From the IMG/VR virus record IMGVR_UViG_2671180699_000002: 12,529 nucleotides of DNA. One strand, written 5' to 3'. Source of the DNA: a virus (taxonomy: Duplodnaviria > Heunggongvirae > Uroviricota > Caudoviricetes). Below are positions 1,565-10,890 of the stretch, in pieces (positions within the stretch are counted from its first letter, which is position 1; every line of letters begins with the position of its first letter). The position numbers were made by a program, and so were the translations under genes. Below the pieces are notes generated by a model. It was not told the origin of the DNA. It did no database searches and saw nothing but the letters and a program-made list of their open reading frames with translations.

Positions 1565-1632
1565 ACGTGCGGGTGCGTTGAGGATGCCTGACACATCAGA
1601 GGTGGCGAGGGATTTCTCCCCCGCCAGGTCTC

Positions 1633-1788
1633 TTACTCCTCAGGTTCGTAAGCTGTGAAGACAGCGACCTCCGTCTGGCCGGTTCGGATTCGTACCTCGC
1701 AGAGGTCTTTCCTCGTTACCAGTGCCGTCACTATGACGGTTAAACAGATGACGATCAGGGCGATTAACATCGCCTTTTGCTGCTTCAT
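1633..1788 (-). CDS. hokD: Hok-family type I toxin (small membrane-depolarising peptide), 51 aa
   Basis: Hand translation of the minus strand gives MKQQKAMLIALIVICLTVIVTALVTRKDLCEVRIRTGQTEVAVFTAYEPEE, which matches my recollection of E. coli HokD/RelF. ATG at 1788..1786, TAA at 1635..1633, SD AAGGAG about 10 nt upstream. The ORF is under 60 aa and so absent from the supplied track. Confidence 0.93.
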   Translation of the reverse strand: MKQQKAMLIALIVICLTVIVTALVTRKDLCEVRIRTGQTEVAVFTAYEPEE

Positions 1789-2046
1789 AGCCTGCTTCTC
1801 CTTGACCTTTCGGTCCGTAAGAGGCTAATCTCTATGTGTCGCATAGATATGGCCTCAGATTAATGTTAAGCGTCTTGCAGGACGCGTAATGTTAACTGGG
1901 GCTTTTCTCTATCTGCCTTTTGGTGTTCATGCCTGAGACAGATAGCCTCAAGCACCCGCAGTCATTCTACTTAACTAAGATTTCCCCGCAAACCGTTTTT
2001 GTCCGGCACAGTAAATATCCAACTAAACCAATGGCGTTCGCTGTAT
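1789..2046 (-). promoter_or_regulatory. hok mRNA leader region (about 260 nt) with a coupled upstream ORF and a long hairpin
   Basis: Non-coding stretch between the stop of the 59-aa membrane gene and the hok ATG. Contains a 19-codon uORF (1844..1785) whose TGA overlaps the hok ATG (ATGA), and an imperfect hairpin at 1821-1856 that covers the uORF start codon. Confidence 0.5.
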
Positions 2047-2226
2047 TTACCGCCAGTATTCAATGCACATGACCGCCATGAACACCCCTAAAAAAAGGGC
2101 ATTTATATATCCAAATATTAATATCAAAACATCAACTTTTTCCATATACCTTGCTGTGAAGATGATGGGCATACATGATACGAACAACCAGAACGCAACA
2201 AACAAAAACTGCAATGCGTTTTTCAT
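2047..2226 (-). CDS. Small hydrophobic membrane protein, 59 aa, two predicted TM helices
   Basis: ATG at 2226..2224 with AGGAGG 5 nt upstream; MKNALQFLFVAFWLFVSCMPIIFTARYMEKVDVLILIFGYINALFLGVFMAVMCIEYWR; stop TAA at 2049..2047. The longer 72-aa track ORF has no SD at its first start. Confidence 0.6.
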   Translation of the reverse strand: MKNALQFLFVAFWLFVSCMPIIFTARYMEKVDVLILIFGYINALFLGVFMAVMCIEYWR

Positions 2227-2455
2227 TATTCCTCCTACAATCAATGTGCAATTACATTTAAACACACCTCAATTTGGCCGGACATATAAATATCTAAACC
2301 AGAAAAAATCACTTACATAGCGTTACAAACTCTTTAGTCTAAATATTCATCGTAAAACATTCCCCATACTTATCAGCCCGTTCTGCGCCAGGTAGCTCAT
2401 TGCCTTATCTGGGAATCTGTAATCAGGTTTCCGGATGCTGGTGGATTTTCGCGTT

Positions 2456-2713
2456 TTAGTTGTTCATAAAAGTGCACAGCTTTAACCAGTTCTTCTGATG
2501 TAACCGGGACTGGCGGGGCAGTGAATAAGGCCTGAATTTCATAGTTCGGCCTGTCGTTACAATCCTCTTTTTTCGGTACATATTTCCAGTCACCAGACCA
2601 CTACTTCCCCTGAAAGTCCGTAACGCCTTTTTTTTCACGTAGCGATATCGCCATGCCACTGTTTTTGCTTGCCCCGCCGTTTCATGCCCTTCCTGATAAT
2701 TAACCTCGCTCAT
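2456..2713 (-). CDS. Possible small, very basic protein, 85 aa
   Basis: ATG at 2713..2711 overlaps the TGA of the upstream 58-aa ORF (ATGA). K/R-rich product. Contains several rare AGG/CGA codons and an A8 run, so it may not be a real gene. Confidence 0.25.
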   Translation of the reverse strand: MSEVNYQEGHETAGQAKTVAWRYRYVKKKALRTFRGSSGLVTGNMYRKKRIVTTGRTMKFRPYSLPRQSRLHQKNWLKLCTFMNN

Positions 2714-2886
2714 TCATCGCCCCACTCATCACAATATGCTTCGACCGGAGTTTTTCCTGCTTCATAATCATCACGCCATGCTTCAGCATCAGCAGCACTG
2801 CCACCACGTAACTCTGCATAGTCCATTAACAGTTCATGCCATTCTTCAAAACTGACGTTGTATTTAGTTGAACCAAAATCAGCCAT
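2710..2886 (-). CDS. Small acidic protein, 58 aa (MADFGSTKYNVSFEEWHELLMDYAELRGGSAADAEAWRDDYEAGKTPVEAYCDEWGDE)
   Basis: Hand-translated. ATG at 2886..2884 with GAGGAAG SD 7-8 nt upstream; overlaps the stop of the 60-aa ORF by 8 nt; E. coli-like codon usage. Below the track's 60-aa cutoff. Confidence 0.5.
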   Translation of the reverse strand: MADFGSTKYNVSFEEWHELLMDYAELRGGSAADAEAWRDDYEAGKTPVEAYCDEWGDE

Positions 2887-3061
2887 TTTGTTCTTCCTCT
2901 TCGTCTTTTATTTCGTGATATGAGTAATTGCAGTAGTTAAAGAAAATATCTTTTGCTTCGTCATGTATTTCATCAGGCGTCGCATCATCATCCACTTCGA
3001 ATTCATCCTCGAAATCTCCACCGGCTATTCCCGTTTCAATAATTATTTTAAACTTTCGCAT
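2879..3061 (-). CDS. Small, strongly acidic protein, 60 aa (about one third D/E)
   Basis: ATG at 3061..3059; stop TGA at 2881..2879. Upstream on the mRNA: AGGAGG, then a 6-bp GC hairpin, then 8 nt, then ATG. Confidence 0.6.
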   Translation of the reverse strand: MRKFKIIIETGIAGGDFEDEFEVDDDATPDEIHDEAKDIFFNYCNYSYHEIKDEEEEQNG

Positions 3062-3068
3062 TTAACTA

Positions 3069-3084
3069 CCGCCCTTTCGGGCGG
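3069..3084 (-). other. GC-rich stem-loop (CCGCCC-TTTC-GGGCGG) between an SD-like AGGAGG and the start codon of the 60-aa gene
   Basis: Perfect 6-bp inverted repeat with a 4-nt loop. Not followed by a T-tract on either strand, so it is not a canonical intrinsic terminator. Confidence 0.6.
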
Positions 3085-3154
3085 CCTCCTGATGTTCTGA
3101 GGGTGCAGAAATCCCTCCGGTTAAGGATTAAATTTTTAACAGAGCTAAATTTAA

Positions 3155-3511
3155 TTATTCAGTTCTGGATTTTGTCGCCCTGCGTATCCGCGCTTTCGCG
3201 TTACGCTCAATCTGAATTAGCTTTTCTATATTTTTTCGCCTTTCCCGCTCCTCCTGACGCAAGAGCCTTACATCATCTGCCAGTCTGGTTTCTCTTTTCG
3301 CCACAGAGAGCATCCAGTCAAATGGCTCCACAACTGCACCGCAGATTTTACAGCGGACCTGACGCTCTTTTTCGTCAACCCGGACAGAGGCGTGATGACA
3401 ATATGGTCTTTCCGATGGCTCATAAAGAAAATTAACCTGATTACGAGGGTCATCCTCTTTTACCGGAAATAAAACGATATTGCTTAACTCATCCTCTGGT
3501 TTTATTTCCAT
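3155..3511 (-). CDS. Hypothetical protein, 118 aa, with Zn-ribbon-like Cys/His motif and basic coiled-coil C-terminus
   Basis: ATG at 3511..3509 preceded by AAGGAGAGGAG. An alternative GTG start at 3568 (137 aa) also has an AGGAGG about 11 nt upstream. Motif YCHH...CKICG; C-terminal R/E/K-rich helix. Confidence 0.65.
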   Translation of the reverse strand: MEIKPEDELSNIVLFPVKEDDPRNQVNFLYEPSERPYCHHASVRVDEKERQVRCKICGAVVEPFDWMLSVAKRETRLADDVRLLRQEERERRKNIEKLIQIERNAKARIRRATKSRTE

Positions 3512-3568
3512 GCTCCTCTCCTTTGATGCGAATGCCAGCGGTAATTGAAGCCTGATAGCTAATTTCAC

Positions 3569-3991
3569 TCACAGTACCGCCTCCTGAAAATTACCCTGAT
3601 AGAAAGCCAGTACACGCTGCATAGCTTCACTCTTCCGGCACTCGCGACAGATTATGTTTAGGCGACTGTCGTAGCGACGTATTTCTCCGTCAGGTGATGA
3701 CCAGATAAGGTCCGGATCAACCACAGCAGGTTTCTTCACCTTTGCCCTCGAGAGTTTTTTGCGGGCGTTTTGCCAGTCCTTACGCGCCTGTTCAGAGGGG
3801 AATAACCCGTAGCCGGAGTTGTATACATCGCCGCTGGCAACCAGCTCTCTTGCGAGAACGCTCATCAGATATCTTGTCGCACCTGTCTTGACTTCCAGTT
3901 GCCGTAACGTCTCACGCCCACTCTGGCGTACGAGTTCAACAACCTGCCCTTTAATTTTTTCTCGCTCTTCTTGTGTAAAAACTTTTGCCAC
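3569..3991 (-). CDS. Hypothetical protein, 140 aa, with probable N-terminal winged-helix/HTH DNA-binding region
   Basis: GTG start at 3991..3989 with AGGAGGG 4-5 nt upstream; stop TGA at 3571..3569. Sits immediately downstream of the O-like gene, where a helicase loader is normally found, but is too short and has no Walker motif. Confidence 0.7.
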   Translation of the reverse strand: MAKVFTQEEREKIKGQVVELVRQSGRETLRQLEVKTGATRYLMSVLARELVASGDVYNSGYGLFPSEQARKDWQNARKKLSRAKVKKPAVVDPDLIWSSPDGEIRRYDSRLNIICRECRKSEAMQRVLAFYQGNFQEAVL

Positions 3992-4031
3992 AAGCCCTCC
4001 TGAAAATTACCTCATGACCAGAAATCAACAC

Positions 4032-5102
4032 TTACCCCCTGAAGCCCGGTGGAATTTCGGTATCCGGTTCAGAAATATGATTCACACAACGCTGGTTGTT
4101 CGTGCCGCTTACCGGGAGCAACCAGGGGTTCTCAAAATTCCGGTCCGGTCCAAAAAACGTCGTCGCTCGCTGAACAAATTCCGTTCCCGTTTTCCCGGTA
4201 GCCGCCAAGTATCTTGCGTAACGCCTCACGCCATCCAGCATGGCCTCTGGTGGCACCCCCTCGCGTAATCTGGCCTTCCAGGCACTGAAAGCGGATTTCT
4301 TCGGGTTTGCTCCGGCACGCAACGGGTACTCCCGCCAGACCTGTTCGAACACATCCGGATAATCCACTCGTCCCACAGACAGCCCGGTGTTTTCCGGGAC
4401 TACCCGATCGGCTTCCCGCTGAATGGCGGAATCGGCTTCAGGCTGCTGCAGTTGGTGTGATTGCTCCGGCCTTGGGGTCATCACCTGCTGCACAGCGCCC
4501 GAATCGGCTTTCAGCGCATACGCTGAATCGGCTTCCGGTGTCGTGCCTGCTGGCTGACCAGGATTGACGGTCTGAACATCCCCTGCCTGGTTCGTGGCGT
4601 TTTTTACGCCATGGACCATAGTGTTTTGATCTTCTTGATCTGTATCTTTATCTGTATCTTTATCTGTCGTGACTCGTCGTGACATGTGCGTGACATTTCG
4701 TGACGCGCCGTGACAATCGCCATTTTGTTCCCGCTTTCTTTCCCTCTCTCGCTGCGCCCTCTTGCGCTCTGCCGGAGATTTTGCGGTTTGCGAAATATTG
4801 CCGTTGTCCTCTTTCAGCACCTGGCGTTTTTCCCATCCAGTGATTAAATCACCATCAAGTACCCGCCCCTGCATCGTCTGCAAAATTGAATCAATTACCT
4901 CTTCTGTCACGTCGAGCGCACTTGCCAAATCTTCTGTCGTGACATCAATGTGACCTCGCGTGACATTTCGTGACGCGCTCACCAGGAGGTGGATATACAC
5001 TGCCATCACTGTTGCAATTGGCTGCCCTGACACCCTGGCAATTGTTCGCCACTTAGGGTCATTTGGCATGTCATGCCATAATCTGAGCCAGGCGTTAGCC
5101 AT
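4032..5102 (-). CDS. Phage replication initiation protein (lambda O-like replisome organiser) containing the probable origin
   Basis: ATG at 5102..5100 with GAGGTGAGT SD (the track ORF starts 2 codons earlier at a GTG). Position after cro/cII; iteron-like CGTGAC repeats and an AT-rich tandem repeat lie inside the coding sequence; acidic, repetitive mid-protein linker (DKDTDKDTD). Confidence 0.85.
   Translation of the reverse strand: MANAWLRLWHDMPNDPKWRTIARVSGQPIATVMAVYIHLLVSASRNVTRGHIDVTTEDLASALDVTEEVIDSILQTMQGRVLDGDLITGWEKRQVLKEDNGNISQTAKSPAERKRAQRERERKREQNGDCHGASRNVTHMSRRVTTDKDTDKDTDQEDQNTMVHGVKNATNQAGDVQTVNPGQPAGTTPEADSAYALKADSGAVQQVMTPRPEQSHQLQQPEADSAIQREADRVVPENTGLSVGRVDYPDVFEQVWREYPLRAGANPKKSAFSAWKARLREGVPPEAMLDGVRRYARYLAATGKTGTEFVQRATTFFGPDRNFENPWLLPVSGTNNQRCVNHISEPDTEIPPGFRG
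4637..4672. repeat. AT-rich tandem repeat, 12-bp unit ATCTGTATCTTT (2 full copies plus a partial third) inside the O-like gene
   Basis: Direct inspection of 4637-4672; encodes the DKDTDKDTD linker; immediately adjacent to iteron cluster A. Confidence 0.85.
4668..4714. repeat. Iteron cluster A: five direct CGTGAC repeats spaced 10-11 bp (candidate ori)
   Basis: CGTGAC begins at 4668, 4678, 4689, 4699 and 4709. One-helical-turn phasing inside the initiator gene, as in lambda ori. Confidence 0.75.
4938..4978. repeat. Iteron cluster B: four (C/T)GTGAC repeats spaced 10-11 bp, including a 21-bp exact copy of part of cluster A
   Basis: Repeats begin at 4938, 4949, 4959 and 4969. GCGTGACATTTCGTGACGCGC is identical at 4688-4708 and 4958-4978. 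Confidence 0.7.
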
Positions 5103-5173
5103 ACTCACCTCTTCTGATACCGAATCTTTTTACTCACGAGTTGCCGGAAGCGATTCGATATGGCTATTGTCAG

Positions 5174-5599
5174 TCAATGTACTGCCACAGCATTTCCTGC
5201 CGGGCCACCACGGTTCATCTGATTGAAACCGGCGATTGCCACTGCGACAAAATCATCAGCGTCTCTCACCAGTCGCTCCCGCGTCTCCACCAGCTCCCGA
5301 AAATAAGCTGAACTGTGGCTGCGCATTCTGGCCACCAGCAAAGGTGGCATTGCCTTTTCGATCGCTGGTAACAACGCCTGAATTTTTTCAACTGCATCAG
5401 GGGTGTCTTTCTCTACCCAGCGGAAAATTTTCTGGGTATTGCGAGCCAGGGCTTCCGGATGGCTGTCGTCATACAGTTCCGGGAACGTCATTCCCAGCTC
5501 GAAATACGCTTTGGTAATTTTCGCAGCCGGTACTTTTTCGCCGTCCGGATGCGCCCAGGCATTCATCGCCATGCGGATGTGTTCATGCTTGATTTTCAT
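5174..5599 (-). CDS. CII-like / YdaT-family regulatory protein, 141 aa
   Basis: ATG at 5599..5597 overlaps the TGA of the cro-like gene (ATGA). N-terminus MKIKHEHI resembles my recollection of Rac YdaT, recalled as a functional CII analogue. Position cro - cII-like - O-like. Confidence 0.75.
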   Translation of the reverse strand: MKIKHEHIRMAMNAWAHPDGEKVPAAKITKAYFELGMTFPELYDDSHPEALARNTQKIFRWVEKDTPDAVEKIQALLPAIEKAMPPLLVARMRSHSSAYFRELVETRERLVRDADDFVAVAIAGFNQMNRGGPAGNAVAVH

Positions 5600-5826
5600 G
5601 AATCCCCCCCTTGGTTAGAAGGCGGATTATGATCAGAACCGGGAATGACAACCGTCGGTATGTGTAACTCATATTTGAGCGCCCCGGCAGTGACTGCCTG
5701 AATTAGCAACGCCCATTTCCACGGAACCTCTTCCCCCCACATGCTGACTGTGGTTTTTGACGTTCCTAGAGCTGCGGCTGTTTTAACAACTCCGCCAAAA
5801 TAGCCTAATACTTCTGATTTTTTCAT
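5596..5826 (-). CDS. Cro-like HTH repressor (DicC/YdaS family), 76 aa from ATG 5826
   Basis: Divergent from the CI-like gene. GGAG precedes ATG 5826; an alternative ATG at 5838 would add MERL. The pattern resembles DicC as I recall it, but is not identical. Confidence 0.8.
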   Translation of the reverse strand: MKKSEVLGYFGGVVKTAAALGTSKTTVSMWGEEVPWKWALLIQAVTAGALKYELHIPTVVIPGSDHNPPSNQGGDS

Positions 5827-5917: not shown

Positions 5918-6556
5918 ATGAGCAAGCAAACTATATCTGAACGCATAACCCAACGTATGCATGCGCTAAACCTGAAAGGCAAAGACCTTGTCAATGGCAC
6001 TGGCGCATCAAAAGGCTCCGTAAGTCAATGGATGAACGGTGGAGGAGCGCCGTCCTCGCGTTACATAAGTTCACTGGCAAAAATATTGAAAGTAAACGAA
6101 AATTGGCTTCTTAATGGAGGAGAGTTAAATACAGGTGATTCGCTTGATCTATCTTTACCGCCGATAAAAACGGTTCCGCTACTATCACTTCAGCAGGCAG
6201 CAAGCTGGAGTGATTATATGAAAAATTCCTCAATAACCTCTTGTGTGCAGCTTGTCGGAGAAATCCCGGTCAATACCTTTGCAGTTGTTCTAGAGAGTGA
6301 CAGTATGTCAACATCTGGTGGGGGAGTTTCCATCCCAAATGGTTCAACAGTTTTTGTTGATCCCGATCGAACCGTACAACCAGGAAATATTGTCCTTGCC
6401 TTACCCAAAGGGACCACAACACCTGTCATTCGTAAACTGGAGATAGAAGGGCCGGATATTCTTTTAGTCCCCACGAATCCTCGCTACCCTTCAATTATGC
6501 TGGATGATCTATCTTGCATATTGGGCGTATGCTTTAAAATTCAACAAGATATTTAA
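5918..6556 (+). CDS. CI-like prophage repressor: N-terminal HTH plus C-terminal S24 (LexA-like) autopeptidase domain, 212 aa
   Basis: N-terminal HTH region (KGKDLVNGTGASKGSVSQWMNG); C-terminal ESDSMS serine motif and downstream RKLE lysine, typical of LexA/CI/UmuD self-cleaving proteins. Divergent from the cro-like gene. Confidence 0.9.
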   Translation: MSKQTISERITQRMHALNLKGKDLVNGTGASKGSVSQWMNGGGAPSSRYISSLAKILKVNENWLLNGGELNTGDSLDLSLPPIKTVPLLSLQQAASWSDYMKNSSITSCVQLVGEIPVNTFAVVLESDSMSTSGGGVSIPNGSTVFVDPDRTVQPGNIVLALPKGTTTPVIRKLEIEGPDILLVPTNPRYPSIMLDDLSCILGVCFKIQQDI

Positions 6557-6620
6557 CCAACCTCATCTATTTGATTAACTGTATGCCATCGTGGTGATGG
6601 CTTAACAGCTGCCTGCTTAA

Positions 6621-6669
6621 AATGTTTTGATAAAAAAACATTGACCTGGAAAGTTCGTCTTTCTAAACT
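6621..6669 (+). promoter_or_regulatory. Candidate pL/PdicB-like promoter with overlapping palindromic operator
   Basis: Inverted repeat AATGTTTT-gataaa-AAAACATT (6621-6642) overlaps a TTGACC -35 (6641-6646); 17-bp spacer; TAAACT -10 (6664-6669). Located between the cI stop and ydfA. Confidence 0.45.
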
Positions 6670-6848
6670 TCATTCATTCCCTCACCCCATCCTACAGAAT
6701 GCAGGGCAATACTTCGAGTTACCAGGCAGTGGTCAGGGGTTAAGTAGCCAGCCCGAGGCGTAAGAACATGACGGCAGGGTTCAACTTTAATAACTATGCA
6801 GCAGGTTTTTGTTCCGCTACCCCGGCGTTAAGGGGAAATGAGGTCAGC

Positions 6849-7004
6849 ATGGATACTATCGATCTTGGCAACAACGAATCTCTGGTGTACGGCGTGTTTC
6901 CAAACCAGGACGGCACCTTCACCGCAATGACGTATACCAAAAGCAAAACGTTTAAAACCGAAAATGGTGCCCGTCGCTGGCTGGAAAGAAACTCAGGTGA
7001 GTGA
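6849..7004 (+). CDS. ydfA: YdfA-like small protein, 51 aa
   Basis: ATG at 6849 with GAGG 5 nt upstream: MDTIDLGNNESLVYGVFPNQDGTFTAMTYTKSKTFKTENGARRWLERNSGE. The 51-aa length and position match Qin ydfA as I recall it. The track ORF starts in frame at 6768 (78 aa), a possible alternative start. Confidence 0.65.
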   Translation: MDTIDLGNNESLVYGVFPNQDGTFTAMTYTKSKTFKTENGARRWLERNSGE

Positions 7005-7005
7005 T

Positions 7006-7134
7006 ATGGATTTTGACACAATCATGGAAAAGGCTTACGAAGAATACTTCGAAGGCCTTGCCGAAGGCGAAGAAGCTCACAGCTTCAACGAATTTAAACA
7101 GGCGCTTTCCAGTTCGGCAAAATCTAACGGCTGA
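7006..7134 (+). CDS. ydfB: YdfB-like small acidic protein, 42 aa
   Basis: Hand-translated: MDFDTIMEKAYEEYFEGLAEGEEAHSFNEFKQALSSSAKSNG. AGGTGA SD 5 nt upstream; starts 2 nt after the ydfA stop. The 42-aa length and position match Qin ydfB as recalled. Below the track cutoff. Confidence 0.6.
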   Translation: MDFDTIMEKAYEEYFEGLAEGEEAHSFNEFKQALSSSAKSNG

Positions 7135-7163
7135 TAAGCGAAACAGCACCGCGAGGAATCAGT

Positions 7164-7382
7164 ATGCAGAAACGAGAACCCGTCATCATCGCGCCAGACT
7201 ATACCGATGATGAACTTTATGAGTGGATGCGCCAGAAAATTAATGCAGCGCAGGATCTGAAATGGGCCAATGAAGCCAGGGCTAAGCAGGCTGAAAATCT
7301 GTCCGCTCTGGAGCAGGATATCACCAATCTGGAAAAAGCAGCGGCATTAAGCATTGCCAGAATGATTACATACCCGCGTTAA
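7164..7382 (+). CDS. ydfC: YdfC-like protein, 72 aa
   Basis: ATG at 7164 with GAGGAA 5 nt upstream; length and position match Qin ydfC as recalled. Confidence 0.8.
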   Translation: MQKREPVIIAPDYTDDELYEWMRQKINAAQDLKWANEARAKQAENLSALEQDITNLEKAAALSIARMITYPR

Positions 7383-7722
7383 TAGCTAACCAACGAAGCT
7401 AAGGTTGGTAATTAAGGAGTTCTCCACGGGTGAGGTGGAGTGCGTGCGCCGGACACGGGTGAGCATCCGGCACTGACAGTTTACTGAAAGGATATTTCCC
7501 TGAAAAGTCAGACCATAACGCGAAAGCGCACGGCGAGGTAGCTGGTTCATAGATAGCCTGTCGTTAAATTTTCGTCGACCGTGCGCTTCCGGTTGTGGCA
7601 ACCCGCGAAATGGTGCGGCGGTAAGTATGGCGGGGTTATTTCTTCCCCGTTGAGGACACCGGGTTGTCAGGTTGACCATACGCTTAAGTGACAACCCCGC
7701 TGCAACGCCCTCTGTTATCAAT

Positions 7723-7775
7723 TTTCTGGTGACGTTTGGCGGTATCAGTTTTACTCCGTGACTGCTCTGCCGCCC
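7723..7775 (+). ncRNA. dicF: DicF small regulatory RNA (cell-division inhibitor; base-pairs with ftsZ mRNA)
   Basis: The sequence TTTCTGGTGACGTTTGGCGGTATCAGTTTTACTCCGTGACTGCTCTGCCGCCC matches my recollection of the 53-nt DicF RNA. It ends in a GGCGG...CCGCC hairpin followed by TTTTT, and sits between ydfC and dicB as in Qin. Confidence 0.88.
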
Positions 7776-7780
7776 TTTTT
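7738..7780 (+). terminator. DicF 3' stem-loop and U-tract (intrinsic terminator)
   Basis: GGCGG (7738-7742) pairs with CCGCC (7770-7774), with inner CAGT/ACTG pairing; followed by TTTTT at 7776-7780. Confidence 0.75.
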
Positions 7781-7949
7781 AAAGTGAATTTTGTGATGTG
7801 GTGAATGCGGCTGAGCGCACGCGGAACAGTTAAAACCAAAAACAGTGTTATGGGTGGATTCTCTGTATCCGGCGTTAATTGTTAACTGGTTAACGTCACC
7901 TGGAGGCACCAGGCACTGCATCACAAAATTCATTGTTGAGGACGCGATA

Positions 7950-8138
7950 ATGAAAACGTTATTACCAAACGTTAATACGTCTGAAGGTTGTTTTGAAATT
8001 GGTGTCACTATCAGTAACCCAGTATTTACTGAAGATGCCATTAACAAGAGAAAACAAGAACGGGAGCTATTAAATAAAATATGCATTGTTTCAATGCTGG
8101 CTCGTTTACGTCTGATGCCAAAAGGATGTGCACAATGA
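7950..8138 (+). CDS. dicB: DicB cell-division inhibitor (acts through MinC), 62 aa
   Basis: MKTLLPNVNTSEGCFEIGVTISNPVFTEDAINKRKQERELLNKICIVSMLARLRLMPKGCAQ matches my recollection of DicB. GAGGA SD 7 nt upstream. The track ORF 7845-8138 is a spurious N-terminal extension. Confidence 0.92.
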   Translation: MKTLLPNVNTSEGCFEIGVTISNPVFTEDAINKRKQERELLNKICIVSMLARLRLMPKGCAQ

Positions 8139-8326
8139 ATTCAGCATTTGTGCTTGTTCTGACAGTTTTTCTTGTTTCCGGAGAGCCAGTTGATATTGCA
8201 GTCAGTGTTCACAGGACAATGCAGGAGTGTATGACTGCAGCAACCGAACAGAAAATTCCCGGTAACTGTTACCCGGTCGATAAAGTTATTCACCAGGATA
8301 ATATCGAAATCCCGGCAGGTCTTTAA
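8135..8326 (+). CDS. ydfD: YdfD-like small protein with N-terminal TM helix, 63 aa (lysis-inducing in K-12 as I recall)
   Basis: ATG at 8135 overlaps the dicB TGA (ATGA): MNSAFVLVLTVFLVSGEPVDIAVS... Length and position match Qin ydfD as recalled. Confidence 0.8.
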   Translation: MNSAFVLVLTVFLVSGEPVDIAVSVHRTMQECMTAATEQKIPGNCYPVDKVIHQDNIEIPAGL

Positions 8327-8418
8327 AACAGTTCCGTAATAAATATCCGGTTTCATTCTTATATGCCAGCAATGGCAGGGATTTGTTCATCCTTAAATCT
8401 GTCATGAGGTTAAAACAA

Positions 8419-10890
8419 ATGAGTAAAGTCTTTATTTGCGCCGCTATTCCTGACGAACTGGCAACAAGGGAAGAAGGCGCTGTGGCTGTAGCCACAGCCA
8501 TTGAAGCTGGCGACGAACGCCGTGCTCGAGCAAAATTTCACTGGCAATTCCTGGAACATTATCCGGCTGCTCAGGACTGCGCTTATAAATTTATTGTCTG
8601 CGAGGATAAACCTGGCATACCCCGCCCTGCCCTCGATTCATGGGATGCTGAATATATGCAGGAAAACCGCTGGGATGAGGAGTCTGCTTCTTTTGTCCCG
8701 GTTGAGACTGAATCCGATCCGATGAACGTCACTTTTGACAAGCTGGCCCCTGAAGTACAGAACGCTGTCATGGTTAAGTTCGACACATGTGAAAACATCA
8801 CCGTTGATATGGTTATTAGCGCACAGGAATTGTTGCAGGAAGACATGGCAACATTCGACGGACATATCGTTGAAGCGTTGATGAAAATGCCAGAAGTTAA
8901 CGCCATGTATCCGGAGCTTAAGTTGCACGCCATTGGGTGGGTTAAGCATAAATGTATTCCTGGTGCTAAATGGCCCGAAATTCAGGCAGAGATGCGCATC
9001 TGGAAAAAACGTCGCGAAGGTGAACGCAAGGAAACCGGAAAATACACGTCTGTTGTTGATCTCGCCCGCGCCAGAGCCAATCAACAGTACACTGAAAATT
9101 CAACAGGAAAAATCAGCCCGGTCATTGCTGCCATTCATCGCGAATACAAGCAGACATGGAAAACACTGGATGACGAACTGGCCTACGCTCTCTGGCCTGG
9201 TGATGTGGATGCCGGAAACATTGACGGCAGCATCCATCGCTGGGCAAAAAATGAAGTTATCGACAACGACCGCGAAGACTGGAAGCGTATCTCGGCATCA
9301 ATGCGCAAACAGCCTGATGCCCTTCGCTACGACCGCCAAACTATTTTTGGCCTTGTCCGTGAGCGTCCGATCGACATTCACAAAGATCCCGTAGCACTGA
9401 ACAAATATATCTGCGAATACCTGACGACAAAGGGCGTGTTTGAGAATGAAGAAACAGACCTGGGCACTGTTGATGTTCTCCAGTCATCAGAAACACAAAC
9501 TGATGCAGTGGAAACTGAGGTATCTGATATCCCAAAAAATGAAACCGCGCCGGAAGCTGAACCATCTGTAGAGCGTGAGGGGCCGTTCTATTTCCTCTTC
9601 GCAGATAAGGACGGAGAAAAATACGGTCGCGCAAACAAACTTTCTGGTCTGGATAAGGCACTGGCTGCTGGCGCCACTGAAATCACAAAAGAAGAATATT
9701 TTGCCCGAAAAAATGGCACATACACGGGCTTACCGCAAAATGTAGATACCGCTGAAGATTCAGAACAACCAGAGCCGATAAAAGTTACCGCTGACGAAGT
9801 AAACAAAATTATGCAGGCAGCCAATATCATCCAGCCTGACGCCGATAAGTTGCTTGCTGCATCACGTGGTGAATTTGTTGAAGGGATTAGTGACCCGAAT
9901 GATCCGAAATGGGTTAAGGGGATCCAGACCCGCGATTCTGTGAACCAGAACCAGCATGAATCGGAACGGAACTACCAAAAAGCGGAACAAAACAGCCCAA
10001 ATGCGTTACAAAACGAGCCAGAAACGAAACAGCCTGAATCAGTGGCGCAACAGGAAGTGGAAAAAGTCTGCACCGCCTGCGGTCAGACCGGCGGCGGCAA
10101 CTGCCCTGATTGTGGCGCGGTAATGGGCGACGCAACATACCAGGAAACATTCGATGAAGAGTATCAGATTGAAGTTCAGGAAGATGATCCGGAGGAAATG
10201 GAAGGCGCTGAACATCCACACAAGGAGAACACTGGCGGCAATCAGCATCACGATAGCGATAATGAAACTGGCGAGACGGCAGATCACTCAATTAAGGTGA
10301 ACGGTCATCAAGAAATCACATCCACCAGCAGGACGTGTGACCATCTAATGATCGACCTTGAAACCATGGGAAAAAATCCTGATGCCCCGATCATCTCAAT
10401 AGGTGCAATATTTTTCGATCCGCAAACCGGAGATATGGGACCGGAATTTAGTAAGACTATCGATCTGGAAACTGCTGGCGGAGTCATTGATCGGGACACC
10501 ATTAAATGGTGGCTTAAGCAATCACGCGAAGCGCAATCTGCCATTATGACCGATGAAATCCCGTTAGATGATGCACTGTTACAATTGTGGGAATTTATCG
10601 ACGAAAACTCCGGTGAATTTTTTGTTCAGGTCTGGGGAAATGGAGCCAACTTCGACAACACGATTTTGCGCCGTTCATACGAACGGCAGGGGATCCCCTG
10701 CCCGTGGCGTTACTACAACGATCGCGATGTACGCACAATCGTTGAGCTGGGGAAAGCCATAGACTTCGATGCCAGAACGGCTATTCCATTCGAAGGTGAG
10801 CGCCATAATGCACTTGATGACGCCCGTTACCAGGCAAAATACGTTTCAGTTATCTGGCAAAAACTGATCCCGAGTCAGGCTGATTCTTAA
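8419..10890 (+). CDS. Large multi-domain protein, 823 aa: uncharacterised N-terminal region, acidic linker, CxxC...CxxC zinc-ribbon-like motif, C-terminal DEDDh (DnaQ-like) 3'-5' exonuclease domain
   Basis: ATG at 8419 with GAGG 9 nt upstream (the track ORF begins at an upstream TTG, 8383). C-terminal motifs: Exo I IDLETMG, Exo II GNGANFDNT, Exo III ERHNALDDARYQ. Zinc-ribbon-like CTACGQTGGGNCPDCG. Occupies the exo/recE position next to xis-int. Confidence 0.88.
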   Translation: MSKVFICAAIPDELATREEGAVAVATAIEAGDERRARAKFHWQFLEHYPAAQDCAYKFIVCEDKPGIPRPALDSWDAEYMQENRWDEESASFVPVETESDPMNVTFDKLAPEVQNAVMVKFDTCENITVDMVISAQELLQEDMATFDGHIVEALMKMPEVNAMYPELKLHAIGWVKHKCIPGAKWPEIQAEMRIWKKRREGERKETGKYTSVVDLARARANQQYTENSTGKISPVIAAIHREYKQTWKTLDDELAYALWPGDVDAGNIDGSIHRWAKNEVIDNDREDWKRISASMRKQPDALRYDRQTIFGLVRERPIDIHKDPVALNKYICEYLTTKGVFENEETDLGTVDVLQSSETQTDAVETEVSDIPKNETAPEAEPSVEREGPFYFLFADKDGEKYGRANKLSGLDKALAAGATEITKEEYFARKNGTYTGLPQNVDTAEDSEQPEPIKVTADEVNKIMQAANIIQPDADKLLAASRGEFVEGISDPNDPKWVKGIQTRDSVNQNQHESERNYQKAEQNSPNALQNEPETKQPESVAQQEVEKVCTACGQTGGGNCPDCGAVMGDATYQETFDEEYQIEVQEDDPEEMEGAEHPHKENTGGNQHHDSDNETGETADHSIKVNGHQEITSTSRTCDHLMIDLETMGKNPDAPIISIGAIFFDPQTGDMGPEFSKTIDLETAGGVIDRDTIKWWLKQSREAQSAIMTDEIPLDDALLQLWEFIDENSGEFFVQVWGNGANFDNTILRRSYERQGIPCPWRYYNDRDVRTIVELGKAIDFDARTAIPFEGERHNALDDARYQAKYVSVIWQKLIPSQADS

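Follow-up and report, generated by a model that had tools for sequence, protein, structure and literature searches.

Corrected gene content of an early accessory slot in an E. coli lambdoid prophage, and a tentative anti-defence role for its two small acidic proteins

What do the tightly packed small ORFs between the replication genes and hok of an E. coli prophage encode, and might their products act against host defences? The question arises from a 12,529-nucleotide stretch of viral DNA (IMG/VR record IMGVR_UViG_2671180699_000002; hereafter the window), a Rac/Qin-type lambdoid prophage of E. coli, present in about 770 of the 5,426 complete genomes of this species. A first-pass annotation had placed a module of five or six small proteins at positions 2047-3568, in an early accessory slot. 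The slot is borne out by existing annotation and by an Rfam match to sok/hok, and the minus-strand ORFs lie at the coordinates originally given; the interval is very probably a variable accessory (nin-like, 'moron') slot of the early-right operon. Replication genes (O, DUF977) lie upstream, and hok/sok downstream, followed by DUF968, rusA and Q. The upstream boundary is the DUF977 gene, also called LygF or 'Ren-like' (3569-3991, minus strand; PF06163, E 4.2e-28; phrog_142; RefSeq), which is preceded by a replisome-organiser gene (4032-5108; RefSeq annotation). The downstream boundary is formed by the sok/hok regulatory RNA region (1786-1957, minus strand; Rfam RF01794, 106.7 bits) and the hokD toxin gene (1633-1788, minus strand; Pfam HOK_GEF, E 1.2e-23).

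The gene count has to be revised. The slot holds three solid, intact genes, for proteins of 118, 60 and 58 aa, together with one pseudogene that had been misread as a gene and one unsupported membrane ORF, an anatomy of which we are highly confident; as things stand, this corrected annotation is the main outcome. The three ORFs can be taken as real genes because they match family HMMs (phrog_1621, Pfam DUF7167 and phrog_519, respectively). That the two acidic products serve as anti-defence or host-takeover decoys is our best guess, and a tentative one. For the explanation as a whole, slot anatomy and decoy function combined, we estimate a probability of roughly 0.38.

The 118-aa protein (3155..3511, minus strand; RefSeq CDS WP_000403785.1; phrog_1621, E 3e-56) had been described as a Zn-ribbon-like protein of 137 aa. 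The gene is real and the knuckle pair is present, but the reading to GTG 3568 was over-extended; the supported start is ATG 3511, with GGAGAGGAG upstream. A short acidic N terminus is followed by a zinc-ribbon-like C-x-H...C-x-x-C knuckle pair (C37-x-H39 ... C54-x-x-C57) and a basic coiled-coil C terminus. The profile match to Zn_Ribbon_TF, at 21.2 bits, is below the 29-bit cut-off, and a homologue from phage 606R7, only 28% identical, retains the Cys/His ligands. Alleles of the gene differ by 38 synonymous versus 13 non-synonymous changes. The family ranges over Enterobacterales phages only, and gp17 of phage ArgO145 is 99% identical. A search of the slot proteins against the PADLOC-DB defence models (E<=0.1) returned nothing beyond a chance match of this protein at 11 bits.

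The 'very basic' 85-aa ORF (2456-2713, minus strand) is not a protein-coding gene. As read, its product would indeed be strongly basic (net +16, pI 11.1), but the frame is not maintained in relatives and RefSeq annotates a pseudogene: the ORF joins the first 28 codons of that pseudogene to an out-of-frame read. The pseudogene (2350..2713, minus strand; 'frameshifted; internal stop' in RefSeq) is a decayed member of an uncharacterised family of 119-171-aa proteins. Its A-run at 2628-2635 has eight A residues where a DNA alignment gives six in intact relatives, a +2 slip; TAG stands at 2601-2603 where they have CCG; and about 150 nt are deleted internally relative to the intact 171-aa WP_001289993.1. 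Consistent with this, tblastn matches change frame at ~2630 and ~2430, and only residues 1-28 of the ORF match relatives, the remainder matching in another frame. In half of the alleles the 85-aa frame contains indels, and it shows one synonymous versus six non-synonymous differences. The intact homologue of the pseudogene is mildly acidic (pI 5.2).

The two-helix membrane ORF (2047..2226, minus strand) is doubtful as a gene. It is intact in all 66 copies, which fall into six alleles, and has a strong SD (AGGAGG, 5 nt before the ATG); its start is probably ATG 2226, giving 59 aa and not the 72 aa read from GTG 2265. Among the six alleles there are 13 non-synonymous differences and no synonymous ones, so that no coding constraint is seen. 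PGAP calls the ORF in none of the RefSeq genomes inspected; the original CFT073 annotation lists it as c1418, and pipelines other than PGAP also call it. Searches of Pfam, PHROG, NCBIfam and PADLOC gave no match, and no homologues were found outside E. coli prophages. A scan of 1600-4100 returned no minus-strand promoter or terminator, and there is therefore no sign that the ORF is a self-contained moron.

The two acidic genes remain, and their products had been called uncharacterised members of no nameable family. The first half of this statement stands, as the function of every family matched by slot proteins is unknown, but the second fails for the 60-aa protein (2879..3061, minus strand), which is a Pfam DUF7167 protein and is so named in RefSeq. 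The PF23768 model covers residues 1-60 of 60 (E 7.9e-15; 55.1 bits against a gathering cut-off of 24.4), and the protein also matches phrog_1997 (E 9e-31). Its composition is as first reported, with 20 Asp or Glu among 60 residues, a net charge of -15 and a pI of 4.05. The AlphaFold model (pLDDT 90.2) predicts strands at 2-8 and 17-23 and a helix at 29-43, followed by an acidic tail. Allelic differences are mostly synonymous (16 versus 5). A search at E<=1e-3 gave 99 cluster representatives. DUF7167 occurs in temperate phages of E. coli and Klebsiella, Klebsiella Guernseyvirinae, Enterococcus Herelleviridae, Pseudomonas phages and large E. coli phages, and the fold recurs in phages of Lactococcus and Streptomyces; IMG/VR queries for diverse contexts yielded almost only E. 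coli prophage copies. The conserved positions form a hydrophobic and aromatic core and a T-x-x-E helix cap, with no catalytic-looking motif among them.

Strong SDs had been noted throughout the cluster. The 60-aa gene does have AGGAGG, but 23 nt from the ATG, with a hairpin between them. This unit (3068..3090, minus strand) consists of the SD and a 7-bp GAAA-tetraloop hairpin (GCCGCCC-GAAA-GGGCGGU) that is present in the centroid fold, after which 6 nt lead to the ATG. Folding of the hairpin would give the SD normal spacing, which suggests a role in translation. In variants of the unit the pairing is mostly kept through G-U, and an identical copy precedes the 60-aa gene in the different context of ArgO145.

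The 58-aa protein (2710..2886, minus strand) aligns with the C-terminal part of phrog_519 (E 4.5e-23), and a profile search found 156 homologues. As reported earlier, it has a net charge of -12 and several aromatic residues (three Trp, four Tyr), and 28% of its residues are Asp or Glu. AlphaFold predicts a three-helix bundle (pLDDT 88.1; helices 13-27, 34-42 and 47-55). In an alignment of 65 family sequences W37 is invariant and F13, W16, L20, A24, A31, D40, Y41, G44 and W55 are nearly so; the conserved positions of both acidic families are structural and not catalytic. Constraint on this gene is only modest (15 synonymous versus 16 non-synonymous differences). The family is found in 202 phage records, among them Ackermannviridae, Mu-like and lambdoid phages, and on 554 plasmids, with 516 conjugative plasmids carrying it.

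The acidity of the two proteins is a conserved trait of both families. Net charge ranges from -7 to -18 among 60 DUF7167 members, most of them 33-50% identical and four of them close relatives at up to 85%, and from -3 to -15 among 65 members of the 58-aa family. Homologues at 33-60% identity in virulent phages of distant hosts keep length, predicted fold, core and charge.

In the window, the 60-aa and 58-aa genes share the 8-nt stop/start overlap that had been noted (ATGGCTGA), and the ATGA at the 58-aa and 85-aa ORFs is likewise present. The coherent five- or six-gene module that had been proposed is not supported: one member is a pseudogene artefact, another is doubtful, and the acidic families are independent outside E. 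coli prophages. Even an obligate pair of acidic genes was rejected. The two adjoin in all 80 loci from E. coli prophages, but these are near-identical copies; in the distant cases examined one family occurs without the other, and the families are unrelated. Outside E. coli the two families travel separately, and the three intact genes of the slot move independently. The 118-60-58 block also occurs in the early-left ea/ead region of the Stx phage ArgO145 and therefore behaves as a portable cassette.

How might these proteins act? We suggest that the 118-, 60- and 58-aa genes would be read from the delayed-early rightward transcript, with the ATGGCTGA overlap probably coupling translation of the acidic pair. 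Compact and conserved in charge, the 60-aa and 58-aa proteins may act without catalysis, as stoichiometric binders or decoys whose surfaces resemble nucleic acid; at an early stage of infection or induction they would target a DNA- or RNA-binding protein of the host, and the two need not cooperate. The spread of both families over temperate and virulent phages, and of the 58-aa family over conjugative plasmids, agrees with a general function in host interaction or anti-defence that serves mobile elements. The association of the 58-aa family with anti-defence genes is anecdotal, amounting to one or two of 17 diverse contexts. A distant homologue lies ~280 nt from a gene for Sequestin (PF21825), a known or suspected anti-defence sponge (bioRxiv 10.1101/2025.07.12.664507), and a second adjoins a gene with a weak Acb2_Tad1_hairpin match; neighbours are mostly recombination, replication or regulatory genes. 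Neither acidic protein has homology or fold similarity to characterised anti-defence proteins or DNA mimics. A literature search for the slot genes, DUF7167, the RefSeq accessions, DUF1187, LygF and the CFT073 locus tags returned no experimental record, and none of the peptide strings appears in the supplements to the Sequestin paper or to two accessory-gene screens.

A more specific form of the decoy proposal, which we consider unlikely, is that DUF7167 and/or the 58-aa family are new, structurally unprecedented small acidic decoy-inhibitors, directed at a conserved DNA-binding protein of host defence or repair. Candidate targets might include a restriction enzyme, RecBCD or a nucleoid-associated silencer. 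Such inhibitors would occur in temperate phages, in virulent phages that infect Gram-negative or Gram-positive bacteria and, in the case of the 58-aa family, on IncI2 conjugative plasmids. Should either family prove to inhibit a protein of host defence or DNA handling, a very small anti-defence fold of wide distribution would be gained, and a role could be assigned to a Pfam DUF as well as to a gene found on hundreds of IncI2 (mcr-1-type) plasmids and in Stx phages. Both families are reasonable, unproven candidates for a functional screen.

The alternative that survives best, somewhat unlikely in our view, is that both acidic proteins serve the phage's DNA replication or recombination machinery as accessory factors and are not aimed at host immunity. 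Genomic context speaks for it: the DUF7167 gene of Klebsiella Guernseyvirinae overlaps the start of a gene for a 454-aa DUF2800/PD-(D/E)XK exonuclease and lies between a helicase-primase gene and genes for a Gp2.5-like SSB and DNA polymerase; a metagenomic temperate phage has GamL-RecT-Gp157 and then DUF7167; the neighbours of 58-aa homologues include RecT, ERF, SSB, YqaJ, DUF2800 and DNA pol A; and in the window the slot genes directly follow the replication genes. The acidic tail at the end of DUF7167 also agrees with this role. A nuclease, annealase or SSB might be modulated through an acidic surface or tail. Such adjacency is nevertheless weak evidence, because phage early operons mix replication, recombination and accessory genes. 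Moreover, the 58-aa family also occurs by capsid genes in Ackermannviridae and by SPFH/NfeD genes on IncI2 plasmids, and the acidic genes of the window prophage have no adjacent nuclease. A supposed link between DUF7167 and an exonuclease in Enterococcus phages was rejected, as the neighbour is a DUF3850/ASCH protein.

It is improbable that the genes have no function and are carried along in a decaying cryptic prophage, kept only by recent common descent and by hitch-hiking with hok/sok. In favour of this reading, the neighbouring gene is a pseudogene, cro is frameshifted according to RefSeq, both acidic genes exist in many truncated or broken copies, and the 80 IMG/VR copies are all identical at the protein level. 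The frequent breakage in cryptic prophages (KL53 has an internal stop, phage 606R7 a frameshift) and the modest constraint on the 58-aa gene also speak against the decoy proposal. Against this stand the preservation of length, predicted fold, core and charge in virulent phages, the predominance of synonymous changes in the 60-aa and 118-aa genes, and the presence of the block in functional Stx phages such as ArgO145.

The two proteins had been likened in composition to the DNA mimics Ocr and ArdA. Their acidity is confirmed and family-wide, at an Ocr/ArdA-like density of Asp and Glu (33% and 28%), but acidity by itself predicts DNA mimicry weakly. By analogy, T7 Ocr (gp0.3) and the ArdA of plasmids and transposons are likewise strongly acidic, non-enzymatic, early, and borne by phages and conjugative plasmids. 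Ocr is an elongated all-helical dimer of ~116 aa that imitates bent B-DNA, and ArdA has three domains in ~165 aa; the slot proteins are half that size or less and show no sequence, profile or fold similarity to either. The profile and structure checks first proposed gave families (DUF7167, phrog_519, phrog_1621) and confident 60-aa and 58-aa models, but no DNA-mimic or Ocr-type fold. That the pair are Ocr/ArdA-type mimics blocking type I restriction-modification enzymes is very improbable: strongly negative net charge (-15 and -12) together with aromatic residues, acidity conserved across both families and the ArdA-like frequency of the 58-aa family on conjugative plasmids speak for it, but there is no Pfam match to Ocr or to ArdA (PF07275, E<=1), no PDB sequence or profile match to Ocr (all PDB chains searched by phmmer and by profile, E<=10), and a resident prophage already tolerates the restriction-modification systems of its host.

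For the decoy proposal, parallels can also be found among smaller proteins. T7 gp5.9, a RecBCD inhibitor of 52 aa encoded directly before exonuclease gene 6, and phi29 p56, a UDG inhibitor of 56 aa, are, like the acidic slot proteins, 50-60 aa long, highly negative in charge and encoded among early genes, and the position of DUF7167 directly before an exonuclease gene in Klebsiella Guernseyvirinae recalls that of gp5.9. Sequestin and similar small sponges resemble the 58-aa protein in being phage-borne and ~60 aa long, and one distant homologue has a Sequestin gene nearby; kinship was rejected (hhalign probability 0.03%, no Pfam match), and the 58-aa protein is unlikely to bind anionic nucleotide signals because of its net charge of -12. 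In its layout the slot resembles the lambda nin and exo-xis regions, which hold small uncharacterised ORFs such as orf60a, orf63 and the zinc-binding Ea8.5: both are variable delayed-early slots of tight, overlapping small genes with one Zn-binding member, putative here. The protein families differ, and a DNA search listed no lambda record. In Stx phages, the 118-60-58 cassette sits in the ead/Ea22 region, a parallel to lambda exo-xis.

The small-ORF cluster at 2047–3568 is a variable accessory slot in the early-right operon of a Rac/Qin-type lambdoid prophage, an assignment drawn from the RefSeq gene order and from the Rfam placement of sok/hok (1786–1957) and the DicF antisense sRNA (7724–7775, plus strand; 76.7 bits), whose presence marks the prophage as Qin/Rac-like. 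On the minus strand of the identical RefSeq locus, a Cro/CI-type regulator is followed by a YdaT-family protein, a replisome organiser, DUF977, hypothetical proteins of 118 aa, DUF7167 and 58 aa, a pseudogene ('frameshifted; internal stop'), hokD, a 92-aa hypothetical protein, DUF968, RusA and an antiterminator. Positions 1600–4100 are identical or near-identical to a prophage of E. coli FDAARGOS_536, CFT073 and many further strains; at least 80% of this segment is covered at one place in 769 of 5,426 complete genomes, and two E. coli phage records match it at 98% identity. The Cro/CI-family regulator at about 5583–5826 (minus strand; 6484–6727 in fetched locus L001) is frameshifted according to RefSeq, which together with the pseudogene at 2350–2713 (minus strand) suggests a partly decayed prophage. 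Hundreds of genomes carry exactly the same proteins as this slot, already filed under DUF or PHROG families, and small uncharacterized ORFs in such a setting would not surprise a specialist. Two confidently folded mini-proteins without structural relatives stand out from this background by their conserved charge and by their spread across different elements; small acidic accessory proteins of mobile elements are already a known kind.

The slot holds three intact small genes that have stop/start overlaps and form a portable cassette within the early operon, all on the minus strand: the 118-aa gene (3155–3511), the 60-aa gene (2879–3061) and the 58-aa gene (2710–2886). ORF calling, sequence inspection and computed compositions bore out the ORFs, overlaps and compositions of the first-pass annotation: the 60-aa product contains 20 Asp and Glu residues (net charge −15), the 58-aa product (3 Trp, 4 Tyr) has a net charge of −12, the 85-aa ORF that follows has a net charge of +16, and the junctions are ATGGCTGA (60/58) and ATGA (58/85). 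Its early-expressed accessory cluster likewise agrees with the RefSeq order, but the 85-aa member is an artefact and the acidic pair is not obligate. The 118-60-58 block recurs in Stx phage ArgO145, within its early-left ead/Ea22 region, with 95–100% protein identity, and thus moves as a cassette. In ArgO145 (4101–4313, minus strand) and some prophages, a third small acidic protein (gp16, 70 aa) lies between the 118-aa and 60-aa genes; it aligns weakly (21%) with the 58-aa family.

The 60-aa protein, which had been said to match no family, is a member of Pfam DUF7167, which it matches at 55 bits (cut-off 24.4), and also of phrog_1997. Searched exhaustively with HMMER, 1.8 billion cluster representatives gave 99 relatives, the full-length ones mostly of 50–60 aa and 33–50% identity. 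DUF7167 occurs in temperate phages of E. coli and Klebsiella, Klebsiella Guernseyvirinae, Enterococcus Herelleviridae, one Pseudomonas phage and large E. coli phages. The family alignment yields the pattern M-[RK]-K-x-x-V-x-x-E-T-G...F-E-V-x-D-D-A-T-x-E-E-I-E-E...F-N...Y-G, with an acidic tail after it. AlphaFold2, given this alignment, predicts a β-hairpin (residues 2–8 and 17–23), a helix (29–43) and a less ordered acidic tail (pLDDT 90.2), and a Foldseek search of BFVD finds further uncharacterized look-alikes in Lactococcus and Streptomyces phages. Because the nearly invariant Thr28 sits at a T-x-x-E helix-capping position, we infer that the conserved positions are structural rather than catalytic. 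An AGGAGG lies 23 nt from the ATG, with a 7-bp GAAA-tetraloop hairpin between them (3068–3090, minus strand) whose folding would bring the Shine-Dalgarno to normal spacing. The whole unit is identical in ArgO145, where the upstream context differs, and hairpin variants mostly retain pairing through G-U.

The 58-aa protein aligns with the C-terminal part of phrog_519 and has 156 relatives by profile search. Across 65 aligned sequences W37 is invariant, and F13, W16, L20, A24, A31, D40, Y41, G44 and W55 are each kept in at least 90%; the model is a three-helix bundle (pLDDT 88.1). Net charges run from −3 to −15 (median −9) in these 65 members and from −7 to −18 (median −11) in 60 aligned DUF7167 members, so that acidity is a family trait in both. 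The family occurs in 202 phage records, chiefly Ackermannviridae of Salmonella, Klebsiella and Escherichia, and on 554 plasmids, of which 516 are conjugative; those listed are mostly about 60 kb, the size of IncI2, and one is confirmed IncI2. On that plasmid, p14EC047a (6348–8980), the order is a CaiF/GrlA-type regulator, DUF1187, the 58-aa gene with the same 8-nt overlap, SPFH and NfeD. The 58-aa gene begins with ATGGCTGA (Met-Ala-Asp) at 2879–2886 (minus strand) in the window, at 7001–7008 in p14EC047a and at 5001–5008 in fetched locus L099; the TGA inside it ends the preceding gene, be it DUF7167 (window), DUF1187 (IncI2 plasmids) or an ORF of 140 aa (Klebsiella plasmids). The element acts as a portable stop/start junction.

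In all 80 IMG/VR loci with the identical 60-aa gene, every one a close E. coli copy, the 58-aa gene directly follows it. The distant homologues examined carry one family only, never both, and profile comparison detected no relationship between the two families. An obligate two-component system was therefore rejected, and the pair is a local linkage.

Two of the three slot genes thus encode compact proteins of conserved negative charge, both from families spread over unrelated mobile elements and neither with a catalytic signature. We propose that the 118-, 60- and 58-aa proteins are made early, after induction or infection, that the 60/58 pair would be translationally coupled, and that the acidic proteins may work as ligands of a host protein whose usual partner is nucleic acid. 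We give this reading, an anti-defence or host-takeover decoy, a probability of roughly 0.3–0.4; a genuinely new anti-defence decoy in either family, or in both, is unlikely. A gene for Sequestin (PF21825; fetched locus L105, 4001–4632), a family that sponges 3'cADPR and blocks type I Thoeris (bioRxiv 10.1101/2025.07.12.664507), lies about 280 nt downstream of one divergent 58-aa homologue, and another homologue abuts a gene with a weak Acb2_Tad1_hairpin match (L102, 4001–4359). These links are few, suggestive but anecdotal.

Somewhat less probable than the decoy reading is that the acidic proteins are accessory to replication or recombination of the phage itself. The genes around divergent homologues are overall typical of early operons, including GamL, RecT, Gp157, Ead_Ea22, nrdD, radical-SAM genes, helicase-primase, DUF2800/PD-(D/E)XK exonuclease, Gp2.5-like SSB and DNA polymerase, and 17 diverse 58-aa loci (144 neighbour ORFs) add S24 repressors, N peptide, RecT, ERF, SSB, YqaJ, MT-A70 and ParB-HTH; the plasmid copy beside SPFH and NfeD sits in other company. 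That the genes are functionless passengers is improbable: a crude count of synonymous to non-synonymous allele differences (16:5 for the 60-aa gene, 38:13 for the 118-aa gene) is consistent with constraint on these two, the 58-aa gene standing at 15:16.

The first-pass annotation had called the acidic composition typical of DNA-mimic anti-restriction or anti-defence proteins of the Ocr/ArdA type. An Ocr/ArdA-like role against type I restriction is very improbable: neither protein matches the Pfam Ocr or ArdA models or any PADLOC model, and searches of PDB chains (E≤10) with both proteins and their family profiles gave only compositional matches to designed repeat proteins. DNA mimics are not known to share a single fold; the negatives therefore exclude membership of known families and not a mode of action. 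No paper on DUF7167, DUF1187 or the RefSeq accessions came up in full-text searches, and strings from neither protein occur in the supplementary files of the Sequestin study or of two large screens of phage accessory genes.

The 118-aa protein (phrog_1621), seen solely in Enterobacterales phages, is a real gene that had been over-extended to 137 aa; RefSeq also starts it at ATG 3511, preceded by GGAGAGGAG. Its C-x-H...C-x-x-C motif is kept in a 28%-identical homologue, its tail is a basic coiled-coil, and its Pfam zinc-ribbon match is under threshold.

The 'very basic' 85-aa protein (2456–2713, minus strand) was rejected as a wrong-frame reading of the pseudogene. Relatives match only its first 28 residues, after which the homologous reading shifts frame at about 2630 and passes to the third frame at about 2430; indels interrupt the frame in half of the alleles in the fetched loci. 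DNA alignment with two intact relatives (the 171-aa WP_001289993.1, from the same slot in a different E. coli strain, and a protein of 119 aa from phage vB_EcoM-606R7) locates, on the minus strand, an A8 run in place of A6 (2628–2635), TAG in place of CCG (2601–2603) and the internal loss of about 150 nt. The intact homologue is mildly acidic (pI 5.2), so the basic character stems from the wrong frame. The pseudogene 3' end (2330–2431, minus strand) resembles the C termini of ArgO145 gp10 (67% over 27 aa) and of the 171-aa relative, and proteins of this position are mosaics with a common C-terminal module.

The two-helix membrane ORF (2047–2226, minus strand) is intact, unbroken in 66 of 66 copies, and probably takes a 59-aa form from ATG 2226, with AGGAGG 5 nt upstream; its status as a gene is not secured. 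It is called by some pipelines, as c1418 in the first annotation of CFT073, but PGAP annotates nothing here in any RefSeq genome inspected, six alleles show 0 synonymous against 13 non-synonymous changes, no HMM library searched gave a match, and tblastn finds only three near-identical E. coli phages. Elsewhere in the window, a run of 10 N (126–135, masked or unknown bases) in the DUF968 gene region yields XXXX in ORF translations, and the early-left region (8383–10890, plus strand) contains an ORF of 835 aa whose long middle section is acidic and of low complexity.
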